Both the position numbers and the translations under genes were made by a program. Shown piece by piece: positions 8,443 to 19,048 of a stretch of DNA of 32,000 nucleotides (the first letter of the stretch is position 1; each line of letters starts with the position of its first letter). Source of the stretch: Thalassolituus hydrocarboniclasticus (lineage in GTDB: Bacteria > Pseudomonadota > Gammaproteobacteria > Pseudomonadales > Oceanobacteraceae); the NCBI RefSeq assembly GCF_025345565.1, contig NZ_CP054475.1:1300448-1332447 (forward strand), read 5' to 3'. The notes under the pieces were generated by a model. It saw only the letters and a program-made list of their open reading frames with translations, made no database searches and had not been told where the DNA came from.

Positions 8443-9036
8443 ATGGCTGTTTTTCGTTTTCTGTTGTCGGGTGGCTGCTTGCTGGCGCTTAGCTGTGTGG
8501 GTATCACACCGGCTGTGCTGGCCGCAGACCCGGTCTACCGCGAAATTGAATTTGCCGATTTGCTGCCGGATGAGGATTTCAAAGCGCTGTCGAATCCACC
8601 GGCCGAGCTGGCGGCGATTGCCGATGGTTCAGAAGAAGATCAGATTGATGCGGCGCTGGGGCAGGGCGAAGTGGGGAAAAACCCGGATCAGCCGCAGACT
8701 GACTGGCACCGGGCGTTGCAATCAACCAATATCCGCGCTGAATTTAACGGCCAGAAAGTCCGTATTCCGGGCTACATAGTGCCGCTGGAGTTTGATGACC
8801 AGCAGGTAGTTACCGAGTTCTTTCTGGTGCCTTACTACGGCGCCTGTATTCATCTGCCGCCGCCGCCACCGAATCAGCTGATTCTGGGCAAAAGCAGCGA
8901 TGGGGTAATGCTGGAAACCATCTACGATCCGTTCTGGATTGAAGGGACGCTGCTGACGGAAGTGAATAAAAATGACGTGGCGACTTCGGCCTACCGCATG
9001 ACGGTTGATCAGATTATTCCGTATAAAATGCAGTAA
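8443..9036 (+). CDS. DUF3299-family exported protein
   Basis: Signal peptide, then ...EIEFADLLPDEDFKAL...VRIPGYIVPLEFDDQQVVTEFFLVPYYGACIHLPPPPPNQ. Start placed at MAVFRFL (8443). Confidence 0.8.
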   Translation: MAVFRFLLSGGCLLALSCVGITPAVLAADPVYREIEFADLLPDEDFKALSNPPAELAAIADGSEEDQIDAALGQGEVGKNPDQPQTDWHRALQSTNIRAEFNGQKVRIPGYIVPLEFDDQQVVTEFFLVPYYGACIHLPPPPPNQLILGKSSDGVMLETIYDPFWIEGTLLTEVNKNDVATSAYRMTVDQIIPYKMQ

Positions 9037-9058: not shown

Positions 9059-10297
9059 TTACTCCCAGACCGGGAATGGGTCGGGCAGTTGTTGCCAGAG
9101 CTCTTGCCCGGCCAGCAGTTCGTCGTCGTTCAGCAGGCAGGCGTCCAGCTGCTGGTGGACGTCCTGTTGGTTGAGGCCCTGACCAATAAACACCAGCTCC
9201 TGGCGCATATCACCAAAAGGCTCCACCCATTTTTCGCGGATATAGGCGAGGGATTCTTCATCCTGTGGCCAGCGCTCATCGGGTACGGCTTTCCAGAACA
9301 TGCCGGCAAAACCATGGTGGGCAATTCCGCCAGCCTGACTCCATTGACCGGCAAATTGCGGGCGGCTGGCCAGCCAGAAATAGCCTTTGGAGCGCAGCAG
9401 CTTGCCGTCTGGCCAGTTCTGATGCAGAAAATCCCAGAATTTTTGCGGATGAAAGGGTTTGCGCGCACGGTACACAAAACTGCCGATACCGTATTCCTCG
9501 GTTTCCGGATGATGCTCGCCGCGTAATTCCTGCAGCCAGCCCGGTGCCTGAGCGGCCTGATCAAAATCAAAACTGCCGGTGCTCAGTACTTTATCCAGCG
9601 GCGCATTGCCTTTAACCATCGGGATCTGTTCAGCGCGTGGATTCAGGCTGTGCAGAATGGCCTGCAGGCGCTGCAGCTGCTCCGCGCTGACCAGATCGGT
9701 TTTGCTGATCAACAGCTTGTCGCAGAATTCAATCTGATCAATCAGCAGGTCGCTGACACTGCGCTGGTCGTCCTCACCCAAGGATTCACCGCTTTCCTGC
9801 AAGGAACGGGCAGCGTCAAAATCCTGCAGAAAATTCACCGCATCCACCACCGTGACCATCGTATCCAGACGGGCAATATCCGACAGGCTGACGCCATCTT
9901 CATCGGCGAAGGTAAAGGTTTCAGCCACCGGCAGCGGCTCGGCGATGCCGGTGGATTCAATCACCAGATAATCAAAGCGCCCGGCTTCCGCCAGTTGGCG
10001 TACCTCAATTAACAGGTCTTCGCGCAGGGTGCAGCAAATGCAGCCGTTGCTCATTTCCACCAGTTTTTCTTCACCGCGCTTCAGCTCAACTTCGTCTTTT
10101 ACGAAGGCAGCATCGATATTCACCTCGCTCATATCATTCACAATCACCGCCACCCGACGGTTATCGCGGTTATGCAGAATATGATTGAGCAGGGTGGTTT
10201 TACCGGCACCGAGAAAGCCAGACAGCACGGTAACCGGCAGGCGGGTATCGGCCATCGCCGGAGTTGCCCTTTCAGGGCTGCTTGCAGGAGCGTTCAT
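9059..10297 (-). CDS. zigA: G3E-family (COG0523) GTPase, zinc metallochaperone type
   Basis: P-loop [18 protein letters not shown]; metal motif [12 protein letters not shown]; CobW C-terminal domain; Zur-like box just upstream. The symbol is by similarity to ZigA and is tentative. Confidence 0.85.
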
Positions 10298-10329
10298 AAA
10301 ATCCTCTCGTGGCTGGTTTGTATTGAATT

Positions 10330-10342
10330 GTTATAACATAAC
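10330..10342. promoter_or_regulatory. Zur-like operator GTTATAACATAAC upstream of the COG0523 GTPase gene
   Basis: 13-bp near-palindrome about 33 bp upstream of the ATG at 10297. Confidence 0.7.
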
Positions 10343-10506
10343 ACTTAAGGTGAGACAGAAGCAAGAATGGGGACAAGTCTGCGCAGCTGTTGCAGGCCGG
10401 AAGAGGAGGGGAAAATCCGCACAGGTTGCCGCTCTGAGGTCACTGGGCTGTTGGCATTAAAACCGTTATCCTTGCGTTCTTTATGTTTAACGCGGATTTA
10501 ACCCAC

Positions 10507-11184
10507 ATGGCTTTTGTAAAACAGCACATAGATTGGATTTTATTTATTCTTCTGGCCGCAGTGTTTATCGCGTTTCCGCAGATTGATCTGAGCGTCAGCC
10601 GCTGGTTTTACGACGCAGAACAAGGCCGCTGGCCGCTGGCCAACCACCCGATCAGCGAGTCGGTGTATGCGTTATTCCGTTATGTTCCCTATGTGCTGGT
10701 GCCGGTTTTACTGATTGCCGTGGCGCTGACCTTTGTAAAAGGCGGCATTGCGCAGGCGCAGCGTAAAGCCTGGGTATTTATTCTGGTGTCGTTGCTGGCG
10801 GGCCCCGGCATTCTGGTGCATACCGTATTTAAAGAAGGTTTTGAGCGGGCGCGGCCAAAGCAGGTGCAGGAATTTGGTGGCCACAGTGGTTTTACACCGG
10901 CCTTTGTGATTTCAGACCAGTGTGCAAAAAAATGTAAATCTTTCGTTAGCGGACATGCGGCGATGGGGTTCTGGCTGATGGCGTTCGCCTGGGTTTTCCG
11001 TCGCCGCAGCTGGTTCTGGGCTGGTATGGCGGTGGGAATTGTGGTCAGCGCCGGACGTATTGTGCAGGGCGGACACTTTTTAAGTGATACGATTTTTGCC
11101 GGTTTTGTCTGCTATTTTACCTACCGGCTGATGAGCTACTGGATTCTGGGTTACAGCCGGATTCAGGACGATAAAAAAGCCTGA
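10507..11184 (+). CDS. PAP2-family phosphatase, inner membrane (lipid A / undecaprenyl phosphatase-like)
   Basis: KEGFERARPKQ and SFVSGHAAMGF acid-phosphatase motifs plus multiple TM helices. An alternative start at 10483 is possible. Confidence 0.8.
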   Translation: MAFVKQHIDWILFILLAAVFIAFPQIDLSVSRWFYDAEQGRWPLANHPISESVYALFRYVPYVLVPVLLIAVALTFVKGGIAQAQRKAWVFILVSLLAGPGILVHTVFKEGFERARPKQVQEFGGHSGFTPAFVISDQCAKKCKSFVSGHAAMGFWLMAFAWVFRRRSWFWAGMAVGIVVSAGRIVQGGHFLSDTIFAGFVCYFTYRLMSYWILGYSRIQDDKKA

Positions 11185-11196
11185 GAAAACTTCTGA

Positions 11197-11817
11197 TTAT
11201 TTTCTGGCAACAATAAACACAGACTGTGCTGCCGGTTGCCAGAGATGATCGATACTGAAGCCTGCCTGATTCAGTTTTTCCACTAACTCCGTTTTATTAA
11301 AACGATGTACAAAGGGCGCCAGACTCAGCATCTGCATCAGCGGAATCAGCATACGCACGAAGGGGTTCATTTCCTTCACCAGCGCTGTGCTGGTAATAAA
11401 TACACCGCCTGGCTTTAACGCCTTATAACTGATAGCGATGGCGGAATCCGGATCTTCCAGCAGGTGCAGGATATTCAGCCCCAGCACGGCGTCAAAGCTG
11501 GCCGATGGTGGATTAATACTTTCCAGCGTTCCCTGCTGAAAACGGATATTACCGATGCCCGCGTCTTTGGCTTTTTGTGCCGCAATGGCCAGCATATTGT
11601 CGGAAATATCCGTTGCCAGAACCTCTTTAACATACGGCGCATGAACCATCGCGGTGCTGCCGGTACCGCAGCCAAACTCCAGCACCGACCAGTCGGGTTG
11701 CAGATATTTTTCGGTGATATCCAGCTTCTTACGGTAGGCCGCTTCATCCTGAATCCGGCTTTTGGCATAGCGCTGTGCACTGTTATCCCAGAATGTCTTT
11801 GAATCCTTCATCGCCAT
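11197..11817 (-). CDS. Class I SAM-dependent methyltransferase
   Basis: Motif I VLEFGCGTGSTAM; FDAVLGLNILHLLEDP. Confidence 0.85.
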   Translation of the reverse strand: MAMKDSKTFWDNSAQRYAKSRIQDEAAYRKKLDITEKYLQPDWSVLEFGCGTGSTAMVHAPYVKEVLATDISDNMLAIAAQKAKDAGIGNIRFQQGTLESINPPSASFDAVLGLNILHLLEDPDSAIAISYKALKPGGVFITSTALVKEMNPFVRMLIPLMQMLSLAPFVHRFNKTELVEKLNQAGFSIDHLWQPAAQSVFIVARK

Positions 11818-11839
11818 CTCCTTTGCTTACCTGTGCGGA

Positions 11840-12334
11840 TTACGCCGTAAAGTGCAGCAGTAATTCAGTGTGTCCGGTATGACTGTCGGTTTGTTCCCGG
11901 ACCAGTGTAAAGCCCTGACTCCGGTAAAAACGACAGCTGGGTTCGTTGGCTTTATATACCGTAAGATGCAGCTCATTGCGCTGCTGTTTGGCGTGATTTA
12001 ATAATTGTTTACCAATGCCCCGACCCTGATGCTGCGGAGCAACAAAGATGGCAGCCAGCGTGTTGTTATGCAGAGCATAAAAACCGACAGCCTGTGCATT
12101 CAGCTCAAATACCCAGACATCGGAGTTGGGTAAATACACATCGCGCATATTATCCAGCTGAGACTGCCAGAATGATGGCTCAATAAAATCATGGGCTTTA
12201 ACGGACGCATCCAGCCAGACTGTCAGTATTGCGTCGATATCACTGCGGGCAGTCTGTGTGTCTGCGCCGGGTGGGGGCAGCGTAGCGGGGGAGGTTGTGG
12301 TATTCAGACGGATACCGGCAGCGGGTCTGATCAT
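11840..12334 (-). CDS. GNAT-family N-acetyltransferase
   Basis: Acetyl-CoA motif VAPQHQGRGIGKQLL and NEPSCRFYRSQGF. Confidence 0.85.
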   Translation of the reverse strand: MIRPAAGIRLNTTTSPATLPPPGADTQTARSDIDAILTVWLDASVKAHDFIEPSFWQSQLDNMRDVYLPNSDVWVFELNAQAVGFYALHNNTLAAIFVAPQHQGRGIGKQLLNHAKQQRNELHLTVYKANEPSCRFYRSQGFTLVREQTDSHTGHTELLLHFTA

Positions 12335-12351
12335 AATTATCCGGGGCTAAA

Positions 12352-12402
12352 TTTTAACAACAAAGATAGTTTTAACAACAAAGATAGTTTTAACAACAAA
12401 GA
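12352..12402. repeat. 18-bp tandem repeat TTTTAACAACAAAGATAG, about 2.8 copies
   Basis: Copies at 12352-12369, 12370-12387 and 12388-12402 (partial, one mismatch). Confidence 0.9.
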
Positions 12403-12406
12403 GGGT

Positions 12407-12814
12407 TCAGGGCATATCAAGGCAACTGAAGCTGTCTGGCAGAATCTGCTGCTGATTATCGCGCTCAAATTTTAAAAATCGTGTGGAACATTCCTGATTC
12501 TGCCAGGGTTTGCAGCTGGAAACCGACAGCGTACAGACTCCGTTATAACAACCGTAAATCAGGCGGTTTCTGCTGGTTGTATTATTCATTTCCAGCAGCG
12601 AGGCAATAACAGCTCCCACTGTGGTAACCGGGCTGCCTTCGCAGGCGTAATGCTCTGCGGCAATTTCCGTGCTGGCATAGCGCATCACATTTTCCAGTAA
12701 TGGCTGTTGGTCTGCCGCCACCGGACTTTGGTGATAGGAACAGACCCAGGCGCTGAATAAGCCAGTGGCCGTTCCCAGCAGGAAAACAGTAATAACCAGT
12801 GCTGTACGTTTCAT
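12407..12814 (-). CDS. Hypothetical secreted or membrane-anchored protein
   Basis: 135-aa ORF with an N-terminal hydrophobic signal (TALVITVFLLGTATGLF) and six Cys residues after it. Confidence 0.55.
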   Translation of the reverse strand: MKRTALVITVFLLGTATGLFSAWVCSYHQSPVAADQQPLLENVMRYASTEIAAEHYACEGSPVTTVGAVIASLLEMNNTTSRNRLIYGCYNGVCTLSVSSCKPWQNQECSTRFLKFERDNQQQILPDSFSCLDMP

Positions 12815-12829
12815 CGCATCACTTTCCGC

Positions 12830-13066
12830 TTATAAACCGGCTTTGGCCCGTTCAATCGCGGCATTGATCGCCGCTTTCGCTTGTGGGCTGTTTTTCCAGC
12901 AGGTGGTTCTCAGCATCTGAGCTACTCTCTCGGCGATATCTTCAGCGTTGTAAGCGGCCAGCTCAACCAGCGAACTGATACCAATTTCCTCAAAGCGTTT
13001 GATCACGGTTGGGCCGACGCCTTTTACTGCCAGCAGGGCTTCTTTTTCAGATTCAGAAAATTTCAT
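12830..13066 (-). CDS. Small helix-hairpin-helix protein (TfoX C-terminal-like)
   Basis: VKGVGPTVIKRFEEIGISSLVELA HhH signature. Confidence 0.7.
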   Translation of the reverse strand: MKFSESEKEALLAVKGVGPTVIKRFEEIGISSLVELAAYNAEDIAERVAQMLRTTCWKNSPQAKAAINAAIERAKAGL

Positions 13067-13120
13067 AGATTGCTTTATTTTAAGGGGGGCATTCGGACTT
13101 GGTAGTTTTCTCGGTAAAAA

Positions 13121-13284
13121 TCAAAGTCTTTCTTAGCTGAGTTATTTTTGGGATTGGACACCTCGTCGGTTTAAATTTGGTGTCCGTTAAAGCGGGGAAA
13201 GATCAAGGTCTTTCTTGGCTGAATATATTTTGGCATTGGACACCTCGTCAGTTTGACTTTGGTGTCCGTTAAAGCGGGGGAAGC
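13121..13284. repeat. Two tandem copies of an 82-bp repeat with internal inverted repeats
   Basis: Unit 'tcaa(a/g)gtctttctt(a/g)gctga...ggacacctcgtc...ggtgtccgttaaagcgggg' at 13121-13202 and 13203-13284. GGACACC/GGTGTCC arms at 13156-13162 and 13179-13185. Confidence 0.9.
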
Positions 13285-13399
13285 TCAGGGCGAACACGCC
13301 TGCGCTTGTTAGGTGCTTTTTGTTTAATTAACGGATTTTGAATCATAGCACTTTGCCAAATTAAAGACTTGAACTGGAATAATGTTTTATGATTTTTAA

Positions 13400-13543
13400 T
13401 CAGGGCCCAATGCAACAACATTTAACTACCTTTGTTTTATTAAAACCACTTGCACAAAGAACATGACCAATCTTCATTGCTCGCTTCAGCGAGCTGCTTT
13501 TAATCTTGGGTTTATCAGGTTTTCCTGAAATTGTATTTTCCAT
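13400..13543 (-). CDS. Putative 47-aa basic, Cys-containing protein inside a cassette-like interval
   Basis: Manual translation MENTISGKPDKPKIKSSSLKRAMKIGHVLCASGFNKTKVVKCCCIGP*, between the attC at 13594 and the half-site at 13314. Absent from the supplied ORF track. No strong RBS. Confidence 0.3.
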   Translation of the reverse strand: MENTISGKPDKPKIKSSSLKRAMKIGHVLCASGFNKTKVVKCCCIGP

Positions 13544-13593
13544 TCTTTGATTAAATACTAATTATCAAATCCCTTCTCTTTTTTCCTCTTTCC

Positions 13594-13698
13594 GCCTAAC
13601 GCCTGCATTTGCGGTTTGGGTGAAATGGCGGCTGTTTTGCATTTTTTTGCAAAACAGGTGACAGTTTACCCAAATCCGGCAAGATGCACTTGTTAGGC
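13594..13698 (-). other. Integron attC recombination site (105 bp)
   Basis: Outer cores GCCTAAC (13594-13600) and GTTAGGC (13692-13698). The arms pair imperfectly (gcctgcatttgcggtttgggt against acccaaatccggcaagatgcac), with a central hairpin CTGTTTTGCA-tttttt-TGCAAAACAG. Assigned to the minus-oriented ORF whose stop lies in the core. Confidence 0.85.
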
Positions 13699-15306
13699 AT
13701 TTTTTCTTGATAGAAACAATGAAAAATCATCATTTACCTTTGACGCCATCAAAGTTAATTTACTTCCGCCATCAGAAACAAAACCTATGCATGTATTGCT
13801 GGTGTTTCCAGCCAATCCAAGCAGGGTATTTGGGCTATCTCCAATCAATTTTTTTGTATATTGGCCCGAGAATGAAGAGCCAGAAACGCTGCCAATCAAC
13901 TTAACAGAATACTTGCTTACTCCAAGCGCTGAAGCTGGCTCTTCCCAAGACGCCTCTAACTTATGGTTACTTACTACAACTTTTGTCTGAGTTACGCCCT
14001 TAACAAACCATTCTCCCTCAAGCTCTTTAGGATTACCCAGATAATATTGCTCAATATAAGAACGAATTAGTTTCTGACGGCTGAGTGATTTTTTACTCAA
14101 TTTTTCCCACTTTTCTCTCTGCTCTTCTTTCTTTTCATTAATGGCAGTGATTAATCTATATACATTTTTATGCGTATCATCTGACTCTAATGCCTTTTTG
14201 GCAATTTCTTCTGCCTCTTCGGTAAAACCTGCATCTAATAGCAAATACCCTTGATTGGCCATTGCTAAAGTATTTTCATAACTGGCAGCTTTCTTATAGT
14301 TATCAATAGCTTTAATTTTCAAGCCAGCTTCTTGAGCACGCACACCCAGATTGTTTAATGCTGTAGAATTTTCACTATCAATTCTAATTAGTCTTAGGTA
14401 GTTGCTTATTGATATATCATCGATATCTTCATTGCTTGCTGCATAAGCAGAATTAAATAACTCGTCTCGATTATTGGGATCAAATTCCAAAGATTTATCT
14501 TTGCAATAGATAGAAATGGTTTTGTTACCTAGAGATTCTTCAATTTTAGAAAGGGCTTCATAAATTTTTGCCTTTTGATTTTCCTCTTCAACCTTTAACA
14601 AACGACTAATTAATAACTCTCGTGCTTGAACTGGATCATTATCTTTATTCATTGCATGGGCTAAGTTTACTTTAGCTTCTGTAATCAAAGGCTCTGATTT
14701 AAATTCGTTTGCTGCTTTTTCCCAAATCTGGACTTCCTTATTGTATTGCATACTGTCACTTAAACAGAATGAAAGCCATGTTAAGCTATTTAGCTTTGAT
14801 TCCTCGGTCTTTGCTGTACGCGCCAACTCTTCTAGCTCAAGAATTGCCGCGTTGTCCTTACCTTTCTCAAACTTAAAGAAAAGATAAATCGCCTTATTTT
14901 CCTCTAACTTAACTTCATCTTTTTCTTCCAATGCATACTTTTTAAAAACCTTTTCGGCTGCGTCTAAATCCCCATTTTCAAATGCAGTGTGCATCTCTGA
15001 AAACCAGCCTTCCTCCTTGGCCTTTTCTTCTTTTTCCGTCTCTTCATCATGGTCTATCGGCTTTTCATCAGCATTCGATAACTTAACTACTTTCTCGTCG
15101 CTTCCATTTATTGGCGCGACAGCGTTCATCCCAATCTCGGAATCGCCGTTCCTGAAAGAAAAAGAAGTTAGCCTAGAAATAAAATCAGAGATAGCATCTC
15201 TGCAAATTATTAATAGCACTAAAAACAAAAGGCTGACCATATTTTCAGATAAAAATCCAGTTATTATCTGCGTTATTTCTAGTGCGGTATTTGGTGTGTC
15301 AGACAT
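13693..15306 (-). CDS. Membrane-anchored TPR-repeat protein with a C-terminal beta-rich domain of unknown function (cassette gene)
   Basis: 537 aa. N-terminal TM (MVSLLFLVLLIICRD), acidic linker, degenerate TPR repeats (e.g. TALNNLGVRAQEAGLKIKAIDNYKKA, AMANQGYLLLDAGFTEEAEEIAKKAL), then about 110 aa of unassigned sequence. Confidence 0.75.
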   Translation of the reverse strand: MSDTPNTALEITQIITGFLSENMVSLLFLVLLIICRDAISDFISRLTSFSFRNGDSEIGMNAVAPINGSDEKVVKLSNADEKPIDHDEETEKEEKAKEEGWFSEMHTAFENGDLDAAEKVFKKYALEEKDEVKLEENKAIYLFFKFEKGKDNAAILELEELARTAKTEESKLNSLTWLSFCLSDSMQYNKEVQIWEKAANEFKSEPLITEAKVNLAHAMNKDNDPVQARELLISRLLKVEEENQKAKIYEALSKIEESLGNKTISIYCKDKSLEFDPNNRDELFNSAYAASNEDIDDISISNYLRLIRIDSENSTALNNLGVRAQEAGLKIKAIDNYKKAASYENTLAMANQGYLLLDAGFTEEAEEIAKKALESDDTHKNVYRLITAINEKKEEQREKWEKLSKKSLSRQKLIRSYIEQYYLGNPKELEGEWFVKGVTQTKVVVSNHKLEASWEEPASALGVSKYSVKLIGSVSGSSFSGQYTKKLIGDSPNTLLGLAGNTSNTCIGFVSDGGSKLTLMASKVNDDFSLFLSRKNA

Positions 15307-15329
15307 GAATTATATTTATCACCTTGTAA

Positions 15330-15336
15330 GCCTAAC
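15330..15336 (-). other. attC/attI-like core (minus strand GTTAGGC) upstream of the TPR gene
   Basis: GTTAGGC on the minus strand, 23 bp before the ATG at 15306. Consistent with a cassette insertion junction. Confidence 0.45.
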
Positions 15337-16185
15337 AGTTTCTTAGTAGGCATGCTCATTAACACACCTAAGCCCTTATTCAGATTTCCAGCCTAACCTA
15401 TTGTCCGGGCTGTAGAAATCATCGTTATTTTCTTTCTTGTCAGGATATAAACGTGCATGCGCGCTTTTACCCTGAGTCGCTCTTTACACTTTGCGCGTTA
15501 TCACTTTTCGTAAAAGCCTAAATGATTGATTTTCTTCCATTCATTCTGGGCCGAAGGCGTCAATCCGCGCATGCGCGTTTTGCTGCCGGAGCGTAAACGC
15601 GCATCAGATTGTACAAAAAGTAAAATATACGGGTTGTTTGTACATGATCTTTCTCTGGTCATTTTCAGTGCTTTTCCGGCAGTGAAAATCGTTCTGGTCT
15701 GCTTGTATTCCAGACACGCTGCCGCCCGTCCTTATATACGCAGGGCAGGAATGGCGTGGTTTATCATTCGGGATTGAAGCGGGGAGGGCGTGTGTCCGGA
15801 CGGTGTGTTCGTACGATATGGCGGCATCCCTGCTGTGGTTCGAGAGTACTGAAATTCGGGGTTGGGTTCAATAATTGATAAAACTGGTTACAAGTGGCAA
15901 ATGACGACAGGTATTGCTTTGGCTCTTCTTGATAATGAAAGCTGTGATCTGGTGGGCAGTGCCCACCCTACATATCAATACGAACGTATGGCAGCTTCTG
16001 TCACGGATAAGATCCGCTCCCACAATACATTGCCTGCTTTGAAATGTGGCTTTGCATCATGGTTTGTGCGCCTGCGTTGGGCCAAAGGCGCTTATATCAC
16101 TGTGCGAAGTTTCCTTTCAGAAAATACCCTGTCTGCCCTGAAAAGCCGCGTTGCGTCTGAATAAACGCGGCATTTGTGCGTTGCC

Positions 16186-16308
16186 AGCCAACCAGGCAGC
16201 CAATCCGGTGGAAAGCACGACCCGGCCCGGAGCTTCTTCTACTAAGGGTTTTAGGCTCTAAGCTCCGGGCGAATTGTTGTGCGGGCCGGATTGGCCACGC
16301 AGTTGGCT
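16186..16308. repeat. Long imperfect inverted repeat / large potential hairpin
   Basis: The arms agccaac...gccaatccgg...gcccggagctt and the reverse complement of aagctccgggc...ccggattggc...gttggct match over about 50 nt each, around a loop of about 24 nt. Confidence 0.85.
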
Positions 16309-16384
16309 GAACAGCACCGCACAGCCGCAAGAGAGGATCGGAAGGAGATACTTCTCCTTGCATGGGGGCGCAGGGGGCGGAGCA

Positions 16385-16490
16385 CCCGCAAAGGCCTAAA
16401 CGAGATTAAAAAAACCACCCCGCGTAGCGGCTACTCAACCGGCCCCGAAAAGGCCTCAAAGAGACTAAAAAAACCAGCCCGCGCAGCGGC
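16385..16490. repeat. Two 47-bp direct repeats, 59-bp period
   Basis: cccgcaaaggcctaaacgagattaaaaaaaccaccccgcgtagcggc and cccgaaaaggcctcaaagagactaaaaaaaccagcccgcgcagcggc, 41/47 identical. Confidence 0.85.
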
Positions 16491-16595
16491 CAAAAACAAA
16501 CCGGATATCGCGACTGAAAGTCGCTCCTGCTGAAAATAGCTCCTACTGCCGTTGACCCTGTAGTCGCCGTACTCTCCATCACAATAAACAGCCAT

Positions 16596-16627
16596 AAAAA
16601 AACTCCGGGCAAAACCCGGAGTTTTTT
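16596..16627 (-). terminator. Rho-independent terminator downstream of katG
   Basis: aaaaaaactccgggcaaaacccggagtttttt: GC-rich stem with flanking A/T tracts. Confidence 0.85.
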
Positions 16628-16705
16628 ATTATTGCCAGCAGCTGACTGAACCTGGTTTCAACACCACCTGATTTCAGTTAGAGCCGCCAGCAAAGGCGGC
16701 GGTCA

Positions 16706-19048
<2,343 letters not shown>

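Follow-up and report, generated by a model that had tools for sequence, protein, structure and literature searches.

The imperfect palindrome at 13594–13698 is very probably the attC site of a gene cassette that was inserted at the attI-like site of an integrase-less chromosomal platform of Thalassolituus hydrocarboniclasticus. The site was examined within the window (the whole 32-kb stretch of DNA that was analysed) and by comparison with other loci, which are designated here by L numbers. The features of the site and of its cassette, designated cassette 1, are as follows.

13594–13698, minus strand: attC of cassette 1, assigned from its sequence, its folds, a full-length match to covariance model R1, a background test and family covariation
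13698 to 13692, minus strand: R'' of attC 1, GCCTAAC; the stop codon TAA of the ORF lies in R''
13600 to 13594, minus strand: R' of attC 1, GTTAGGC; crossover between G13600 and T13599
13600–15335, minus strand: gene cassette 1, 1736 bp, 34–40% GC, starting TTAGGCTTACAAGGTGATA.., with a 537-aa ORF and the attC at its end
13693–15306, minus strand: cassette ORF, 537 aa, on the same strand as the attC top strand, with its stop inside R''

Anatomy and covariance score of the attC site

The element measures 105 nt end to end, from GCCTAAC (13594–13600) to GTTAGGC (13692–13698). These ends agree exactly with the attC cores RYYYAAC/GTTRRRY on both strands, confirming the bounded palindrome that a previous sequence-only reading had described. 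An exact GCCTAAC-N75-105-GTTAGGC pair was found once in the window compared to 0.01 expected from shuffled sequences, and 4 of the 5 GTTAGGC heptamers of the 32-kb window are inside the 1.8-kb element. The GC content was 34–40% over 13501–15500 compared to 52–60% in most of the window, consistent with the AT-rich surroundings noted before.

Folding of the plus strand as single-stranded DNA gave −35.9 kcal/mol with a z score of −8.9, while the minus strand gave −27.7 kcal/mol with a z score of −5.8; neither value was equalled by any of 200 shuffles, and the plus strand fold was the more stable by 8 kcal/mol. The fold ends in a 26-nt variable terminal hairpin (13632–13657), which is the central hairpin formed by CTGTTTTGCA (13632–13641) and TGCAAAACAG (13648–13657) around a T6 loop. 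The plus strand fold contains three bulged bases, T13675, G13678 and G13683, all of them on the 3' arm, so that both the extrahelical bases and the strong central hairpin recognised from the letters were reproduced in the calculated structure. A second inverted repeat pair (L''/L') is found past a short unpaired spacer, where the L box TGCAT (13604–13608) is paired with ATGCA (13684–13688) beyond an internal loop of 2–3 nt.

According to structural work on VCR and attC-aadA7, the extrahelical bases of attC sites are carried by the bottom strand, in its R''/L'' arm. As all the bulges of the present site are on the 3' arm of the plus strand, the plus strand is identified as the bottom strand and the minus strand as the one on which the cassette is read; the extrahelical bases are therefore on the single strand opposite the cassette ORF. 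The sequence-only reading had reported a complete attC, and the site is genuine, but the strand in which it was given (plus) is the bottom strand, with the cassette and the 537-aa ORF on the minus strand. The −35.9 kcal/mol fold is thus the bottom-strand fold which that reading had proposed as a check. Read along the top strand, the order is R'' GCCTAAC, AAG, TGCAT-C-TTGC-C-GG-A-TTTGGG.., the terminal hairpin ..CCCAAACCGCAAATGCA, GGC and R' GTTAGGC. Judged by sequence and predicted structure, the site has every feature by which attC sites are recognised.

The attC sites (59-base elements) of class 1 cassettes, for example dfrA1 and arr-2, likewise have RYYYAAC/GTTRRRY cores. The context AAG..AGGCGTTAG of attC 1 is found in the dfrA1 attC as well, and the bulge spacing of 5 bp-1-4 bp-1-2 bp-1 is that of the arr-2 attC of a class 1 integron. 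Also shared with the class 1 sites are an L box past an unpaired spacer, bottom-strand extrahelical bases, a variable terminal hairpin and a position at the 3' end of a promoterless ORF with the stop in R''. A difference is that the sequence of attC 1 is new, with 44–64% identity to the other attC sites recovered, and unlike the class 1 examples the gene of cassette 1 is not resistance-related and was not found on plasmids.

The site was scored using R1, a small surrogate attC covariance model. Class 1 integrons were found in 9 plasmids via the 5'-conserved segment and arrays were taken from these; the training set consisted of 16 distinct attC sites directly following annotated cassette genes in the 9 plasmid integrons, with the window site left out. 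R1 was built from alignment A1, and its paired columns cover the R box and the proximal L box only. A search of the window with filters off gave a full-length match on the minus strand from 13698 to 13594, with a score of 30.9 bits and an E-value of 6.3e-6, the E-values of this model being rough. The next-best matches scored 15 bits, over 35 nt of a coding region, and 11.9 bits, leaving 13594–13698 as the only strong match in the window.

A set of 80 unrelated katG loci without synteny, amounting to 1.4 Mb, was used as a negative control. Matches above 22 bits were found there only in the L009 cassette array, and elsewhere scores were 21 bits or lower. Because the control exceeded 22 bits only at a real array, the 30.9 bits of the window site are within the range of genuine attC sites, and the covariance test suggested by the sequence-only reading, performed here with the surrogate model, placed the site well above background. 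The L009 array (L009:154–5342, Arenicellales MAG JARFQE010000030.1) contained six R1 matches on one strand, scoring from 45 to 14 bits; its sites are regularly spaced, and this array, unrelated to that of the window, is located a few kb upstream of the katG of that genome.

Covariation was measured over 18 R1 matches from all loci, in an alignment that was fitted to the R1 model, which favours the structure. Compensatory changes were present in 7 of 7 L-box pairs and 93% of cells were paired, while sliding the partner reduced the paired cells to 27–37%. TAAC/GTTA was invariant across the 18 matches. The 105-nt element was single-copy in the window and across 1.96 Mb of compared sequence, so attC 1 is not a dispersed repeat, the outcome that the sequence-only reading had named as counting against an attC.

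A strict RYYYAAC/GTTRRRY regular expression was dropped as an attC test after several known plasmid attC sites were missed. Rfam gave no match at gathering thresholds over the whole window and none at relaxed thresholds over 12800–16800. The inverted repeat 15449–15470/15559–15580 was rejected as an attC, as it has no core sites and is a product of repeated GCGCATGCGC palindromes. A palindrome at 16186–16308, which follows the ORF 15901–16164, is a symmetric 123-nt sequence (AGCCAAC...GTTGGCT) that folds with −34 kcal/mol (z = −4.6) and no bulged bases and scores 11.9 bits with R1 (E 0.48); the region 16151–16465 is not conserved in L125. This palindrome was considered together with ORF100 as a second, opposite-strand cassette and rejected, because 11.9 bits is within the noise, there are no bulges and L125 shows no conservation of the region around it. 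A degenerate attC and a hairpin of unrelated origin are the two readings left for it.

The cassette and the attI-like platform

The ORF from 15306 to 13693 is the sole long ORF near the attC, and its stop codon TAA is the TAA of GCC-TAA-C. The cassette is AT-rich and looks foreign. The 537-aa product is predicted to be a membrane-anchored TPR protein with an N-terminal helical anchor, a disordered acidic linker, a superhelix of approximately 8 TPRs and a C-terminal beta domain. The AlphaFold model had a pLDDT of 78.6, the only Foldseek matches to this model were TPR superhelices, and Pfam gave weak TPR matches. PADLOC, which covers defence systems, gave no match for the protein and it was not found in plasmids; exact-protein look-ups with the 537-aa protein and with the 78-aa, 135-aa and 206-aa proteins gave no match. 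Its 147 homologues are scattered over many metagenomes as well as Thalassolituus, Shewanella, Aeromonas, Marinobacter, Amphritea, Kushneria and Nitrosomonas. More remote homologues, located on metagenomic contigs or arrays, were flanked by same-strand R1 matches of up to 42 bits. Copies of the cassette at the DNA level were as follows.

Thalassolituus MAG (L092–L097): 94.8% DNA identity over 13701–15336; third in an array beside cysS
Shewanella alkalitolerans (L098): 89.4% DNA identity; alone, flanked by cydX and a chemoreceptor gene
L099: 82.6% DNA identity; alone

The left ends of these DNA matches were at 15336 in L092–L097, at 15329 in L099 and 19 nt further, at 15355, in L098. The left junction G|TTAGGCTTACAAGG (G|TTAGGC) is common to the window, L092 and L098, and is preceded by three different upstream flanks. 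The right ends differ, being a 105-nt attC in the window and 72-nt sites in L098 and L099 that have the same core layout with unrelated sequence. The attC marks the 3' boundary of a cassette that recurs in different contexts, with the same left boundary in at least two of them, and the presence of one cassette in several genomic contexts is the behaviour of an integron cassette. In L092 the attC after the TPR cassette is replaced by approximately three 66-nt tandem repeats (GATTCAAGGGGTCAGAGTCGTTGATTCC..., L092:11611–11841), and the C-terminus of the L092 protein is 9 aa longer. For the copies in Shewanella and L099, the sequences upstream were considered as homologous attI platforms and rejected, as the similarity reaches only about 20 nt.

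The sequence upstream of cassette 1 in the window contains the following features.

15330–15397, minus strand: attI-like core region, defined by comparative junctions across Thalassolituus sequences
15336 to 15330, minus strand: attI-like R box GTTAGGC; crossover between G15336 and T15335
15351 to 15346, minus strand: GCCTAC, an incomplete inverted copy of the R box, located 9 nt upstream
15363 to 15357, minus strand: direct copy GTTAATG, 27 nt upstream of the R box
15397 to 15391, minus strand: direct copy GTTAGGC, 61 nt upstream of the R box
15331–15899, minus strand: conserved non-coding platform, in the place normally taken by integron promoters and intI

The platform has 88–91% identity to L117 and L121–L125, while L120 contains it only in part, with 84–86% identity. 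The match ends at the crossover in L117 and L121–L126. Alignment of six Thalassolituus sequences, including that of the window, revealed conservation up to ..CTAAGAAACTGTT followed by wholly different cassettes; the conserved stretch of this alignment ends in ..GCATGCCTACTAAGAAACTGTT, with scattered substitutions in L121 and greater divergence in L120. The platform core of L120 is ..TAAATTATT, with ATT in place of GTT. This platform copy (L120:6350–7110) is missing the part that matches 15500–15696 of the window, and at its core, ..AAATTATTAGC, an A replaces the G at the crossover.

As the relatives break off at the GTT of 15336, the region 15331–15899 appears to hold a conserved attI-like docking site. 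A shared junction followed by divergence is, on this comparison, the signature of repeated insertion at a single attI crossover, G15336|T15335. The assignment as attI-like is based on the comparative junctions and on resemblance to the layout of attI1; the R box with its inverted and direct copies is, we take it, reminiscent of that site. Because the divergence occurs at the attI-like GTT, the window cassette is the first, attI-proximal one and is not at the far end of an array. The suggestion that the site could be the far end of a sedentary chromosomal integron was thus not upheld, and the array instead comprises this one intact cassette and one truncated cassette.

The final ~245 bp of the platform have a paralogue with 67% identity, which heads the cysS-side array of L092 and ends in ..AATAAACTGTTATGC where the first cassette begins. 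Palindromes similar to GCGCATGCGC are spaced about 110 nt apart in the platform, at 15352, 15462 and 15573 on the minus strand of the window, and at 8757, 8868 and 8975 in the L092 paralogue. The platform also contains the inverted repeat TGTACAAA-N18-TTTGTACA at about 15646 to 15610. The palindromes and the inverted repeat may be protein-binding sites.

Array setting, absence of a nearby integrase and alternative explanations

The region on the other side of attC 1, together with the gene that adjoins the platform, is arranged as follows.

13288–13599, minus strand: second-cassette remnant, starting TTAGGCGGAAAG, AT-rich, ~300 bp, with a 47-aa ORF and an attC stump
13543 to 13400, minus strand: 47-aa ORF of the second-cassette remnant
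13314 to 13297, minus strand: attC stump ACCTAAC AAG CGCAGGCG, without a matching 3' half
13113–13276, no strand assigned: tandem pair of 82-nt units separating the array from the HHH gene, with one GGACACC-N16-GGTGTCC hairpin in each unit
12830–13066, minus strand: 78-aa helix-hairpin-helix (HHH) gene of the conserved flank, 100% identical to a T. hydrocarboniclasticus protein
After the HHH gene: genes for a 135-aa protein, a GNAT protein and a methyltransferase, forming the conserved chromosomal flank
15901–16164, plus strand: small genus-specific ORF, 87 aa from its ATG, divergent from the platform and at the usual position of intI

At its downstream junction attC 1 has a perfect GTTAGGC followed by an AT-rich cassette-like piece, and 13288–13599 is read as a truncated second cassette. 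Over 24 nt its attC stump has 79% identity to the 5' end of attC 1, and the stump was missed by R1; no relative of this remnant was detected in any compared locus. The 82-nt units are 85% identical to each other, with a single copy in L121, L122 and L124 and only the left half in L117, L118, L119 and L123. They were rejected as the missing half of attC 2 since they contain no GTTRRRY and are part of the conserved distal flank.

Two proteins encoded in the window, that of the HHH gene among them, are 100% identical to T. hydrocarboniclasticus proteins. In related Thalassolituus genomes the flanks are 88–95% identical with different cassettes between them. The stretch 10000–13087 of the window has 91–95% identity to L117–L124, and between the same conserved flanks these loci have 3–5 different small same-strand ORFs upstream of the HHH gene, most of which end in an R1 match of 12–39 bits. 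Each relative has 2–5 R1 matches at this locus and the whole array occupies 2.5–3.5 kb between conserved genes, while the array of the window is bounded on both sides within 2.3 kb by conserved flanks. Three combinations of platform flanks were observed, katG-ORF with HHH in the window, Tim44-like with HHH in L117 and L120–L124, and katG-ORF with aldose epimerase in L125 and L126, which suggests chromosomal rearrangement by recombination between two arrays. The 87-aa ORF is beside katG in L125 and L126 in the same arrangement. It has only 7 homologues, and those with an organism name are from Thalassolituus; it gave no family match and is not integrase-related.

The earlier statement that there is no integrase in the window was borne out. 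A tblastn search of the whole window with IntI1 gave a best E-value of 0.27, inside katG, and Pfam gave no match in the three forward frames of 15337–16400, where there is no integrase-like reading frame. Taken together, IntI1 tblastn and Pfam on the adjoining frames detected no integrase within 13.5 kb to the left or 18 kb to the right of the attC, and tblastn with IntI1 of the related loci with 9–10 kb of flank revealed no integrase or remnant.

When the locus was compared with known integron types, it resembled a CALIN in being a chromosomal cassette array with no intI or recognisable intI pseudogene nearby, which is the situation of 95% of CALINs (PMC4889954). A CALIN requires at least 2 attC sites (PMC4889954), while the window has 1 intact attC, the second being a 5' stump; the CALIN label fits at the level of the locus because the relatives carry 3–5 cassettes there. 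The CALIN assignment of the sequence-only reading consequently holds for an integrase-less locus of this kind, while the window taken alone, with one intact attC, is SALIN-like. In contrast to the surveyed CALINs, the start of the array can be mapped here, at a conserved attI-like site. The attI sequences of most integrons are unknown, which is why CALIN surveys miss them (PMC4889954). A single intact attC with a gene and no integrase is also what defines a SALIN (10.1101/2022.09.11.507474), a class with no other att site; here a comparatively identified attI-like site adjoins, and a conserved platform that is used for other cassettes in other strains differs from a random GWT site. The same cassette in Shewanella alkalitolerans (L098) is apparently a SALIN.

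The locus is also similar to the sedentary chromosomal integrons of marine Gammaproteobacteria, for example the Vibrio superintegron, in that it is fixed across the genus and its variable cassettes are mostly of unknown function; toxin-antitoxin cassettes, as in the Vibrio superintegron, occur in the sister array of L092. Unlike the sedentary integrons it has no intI beside attI, arrays of 1–5 cassettes, and heterogeneous attC sites, those of these arrays being 59–133 nt long and 44–64% identical to the window site. A site that takes cassettes is present by comparison, while an intI adjacent to the attI and divergent from it is absent from the window, and because there is no intI the locus falls outside the definition of a complete integron. 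By its attC count the window locus is a SALIN, and sequence comparison with its relatives makes it a reduced form of an integrase-less array that is found across the genus. The window element is a CALIN/SALIN-type integron remnant and so of a known kind, the only unusual point being an integrase-less attI platform with cassette turnover.

Three other explanations were weighed against insertion at a conserved attI-like platform. The cassette could have been inserted off-target at an ordinary attG site (consensus GWT) with no integron platform, as the single intact attC, the missing integrase and the isolated appearance of the cassette in Shewanella alkalitolerans and L099 would suggest; SALINs are frequent, with 3400 found in 21,105 genomes (10.1101/2022.09.11.507474). 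This is nevertheless very unlikely, because the same GTT carries other first cassettes in L117, L119, L121, L123 and, with a diverged core, L120, because 570 bp of platform conserved at 88–91% precede the insertion point, and because the perfect GTTAGGC downstream of attC 1 is followed by another AT-rich cassette-like piece. An isolated insertion is contradicted by the junction alignment of the six sequences. An even smaller probability was given to a large sedentary chromosomal integron that has its distal end here and its integrase and attI outside the window, although the chromosomal locus is conserved in the genus and the cassettes vary between species. As the cassette reads towards lower coordinates, the attI must be on the high-coordinate side, which is where the conserved junction is found; in addition the array is confined to 2.3 kb by conserved flanks, with 2.5–3.5 kb in the relatives, and there is no integrase within 13–18 kb.

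The least probable explanation, with hardly any weight left to it, is that GCCTAAC/GTTAGGC ends are present by chance on a palindrome unconnected with integrons, for example a terminator belonging to the TPR gene, a REP-type element or a MITE. In its favour, the element is a strong hairpin immediately 3' of a gene, and attC sites can themselves attenuate transcription. However the hairpin is not followed by a T-run and the site was not reported by a terminator scan. The element is single-copy, its one-sided bulges and R/L boxes fit R1 at a score reached only by real arrays, and elsewhere the homologous gene precedes unrelated 72-nt sequences with the same core layout.

Proposed recombination and its wider setting

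Insertion of the cassette at the attI-like platform would involve the following steps, which were drawn from established integron biology. The cassette extends on the minus strand from 15335 to 13600 and carries a promoterless gene for the 537-aa TPR protein. The plus (bottom) strand of the attC would fold to a hairpin in which GCCTAAC/GTTAGGC forms the R box and TGCAT/ATGCA the L box, with three bulged bases (G, G and T) that would mark which strand recombines. IntI would then cut the bottom-strand AAC between A and C, corresponding to G|TT on the top strand, and strand exchange with the double-stranded attI would occur at G15336|T15335. Through this exchange a circular cassette would enter or leave as the first cassette. 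We infer that the IntI comes from another place in the genome or from a visiting element and that cassette 1 is presumably still mobilisable.

A broader proposal is that the platforms of Thalassolituus work without an integrase in cis, with cassette turnover at several orphan attI sites driven in trans by an integrase, and with the chromosome reshuffled through recombination between arrays. This is put forward tentatively, as a possibility to which we give somewhat less than an even chance. It is based on the non-coding module of ~570 bp conserved at 88–91% between species, its 67% paralogue beside cysS, its occurrence with the three flank combinations, the lack of intI or an intI remnant in any platform copy, and the different first cassettes at the GTT in different strains.

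The core finding is ordinary, because thousands of integrase-less cassettes have already been catalogued and this is one more. It is a rare case in that the attI of an environmental integrase-less array was pinned to the nucleotide by comparison. Variation of cassette content among close relatives without an adjoining intI also bears on whether a CALIN is a dead remnant or still has an integrase acting on it in trans. The gene of the 537-aa TPR cassette travels widely, being present in Thalassolituus, Shewanella, Aeromonas, Marinobacter and others. Integrons in Thalassolituus are mentioned in one paper, which says only that remnants exist.

Other observations concern the strand setting and the katG side of the locus. 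The cumulative GC skew rises across the window, which suggests that the plus strand is the leading strand, and in that case the lagging-strand template would contain the bottom strand of the attC. An arrangement of this kind promotes folding and is characteristic of mobile integrons, not of large sedentary ones. Downstream of katG, two 59-nt tandem repeats at 16385–16490 each contain a terminator-like hairpin and a T-run on the minus strand, and a bidirectional terminator is present besides these repeats at 16597–16630.
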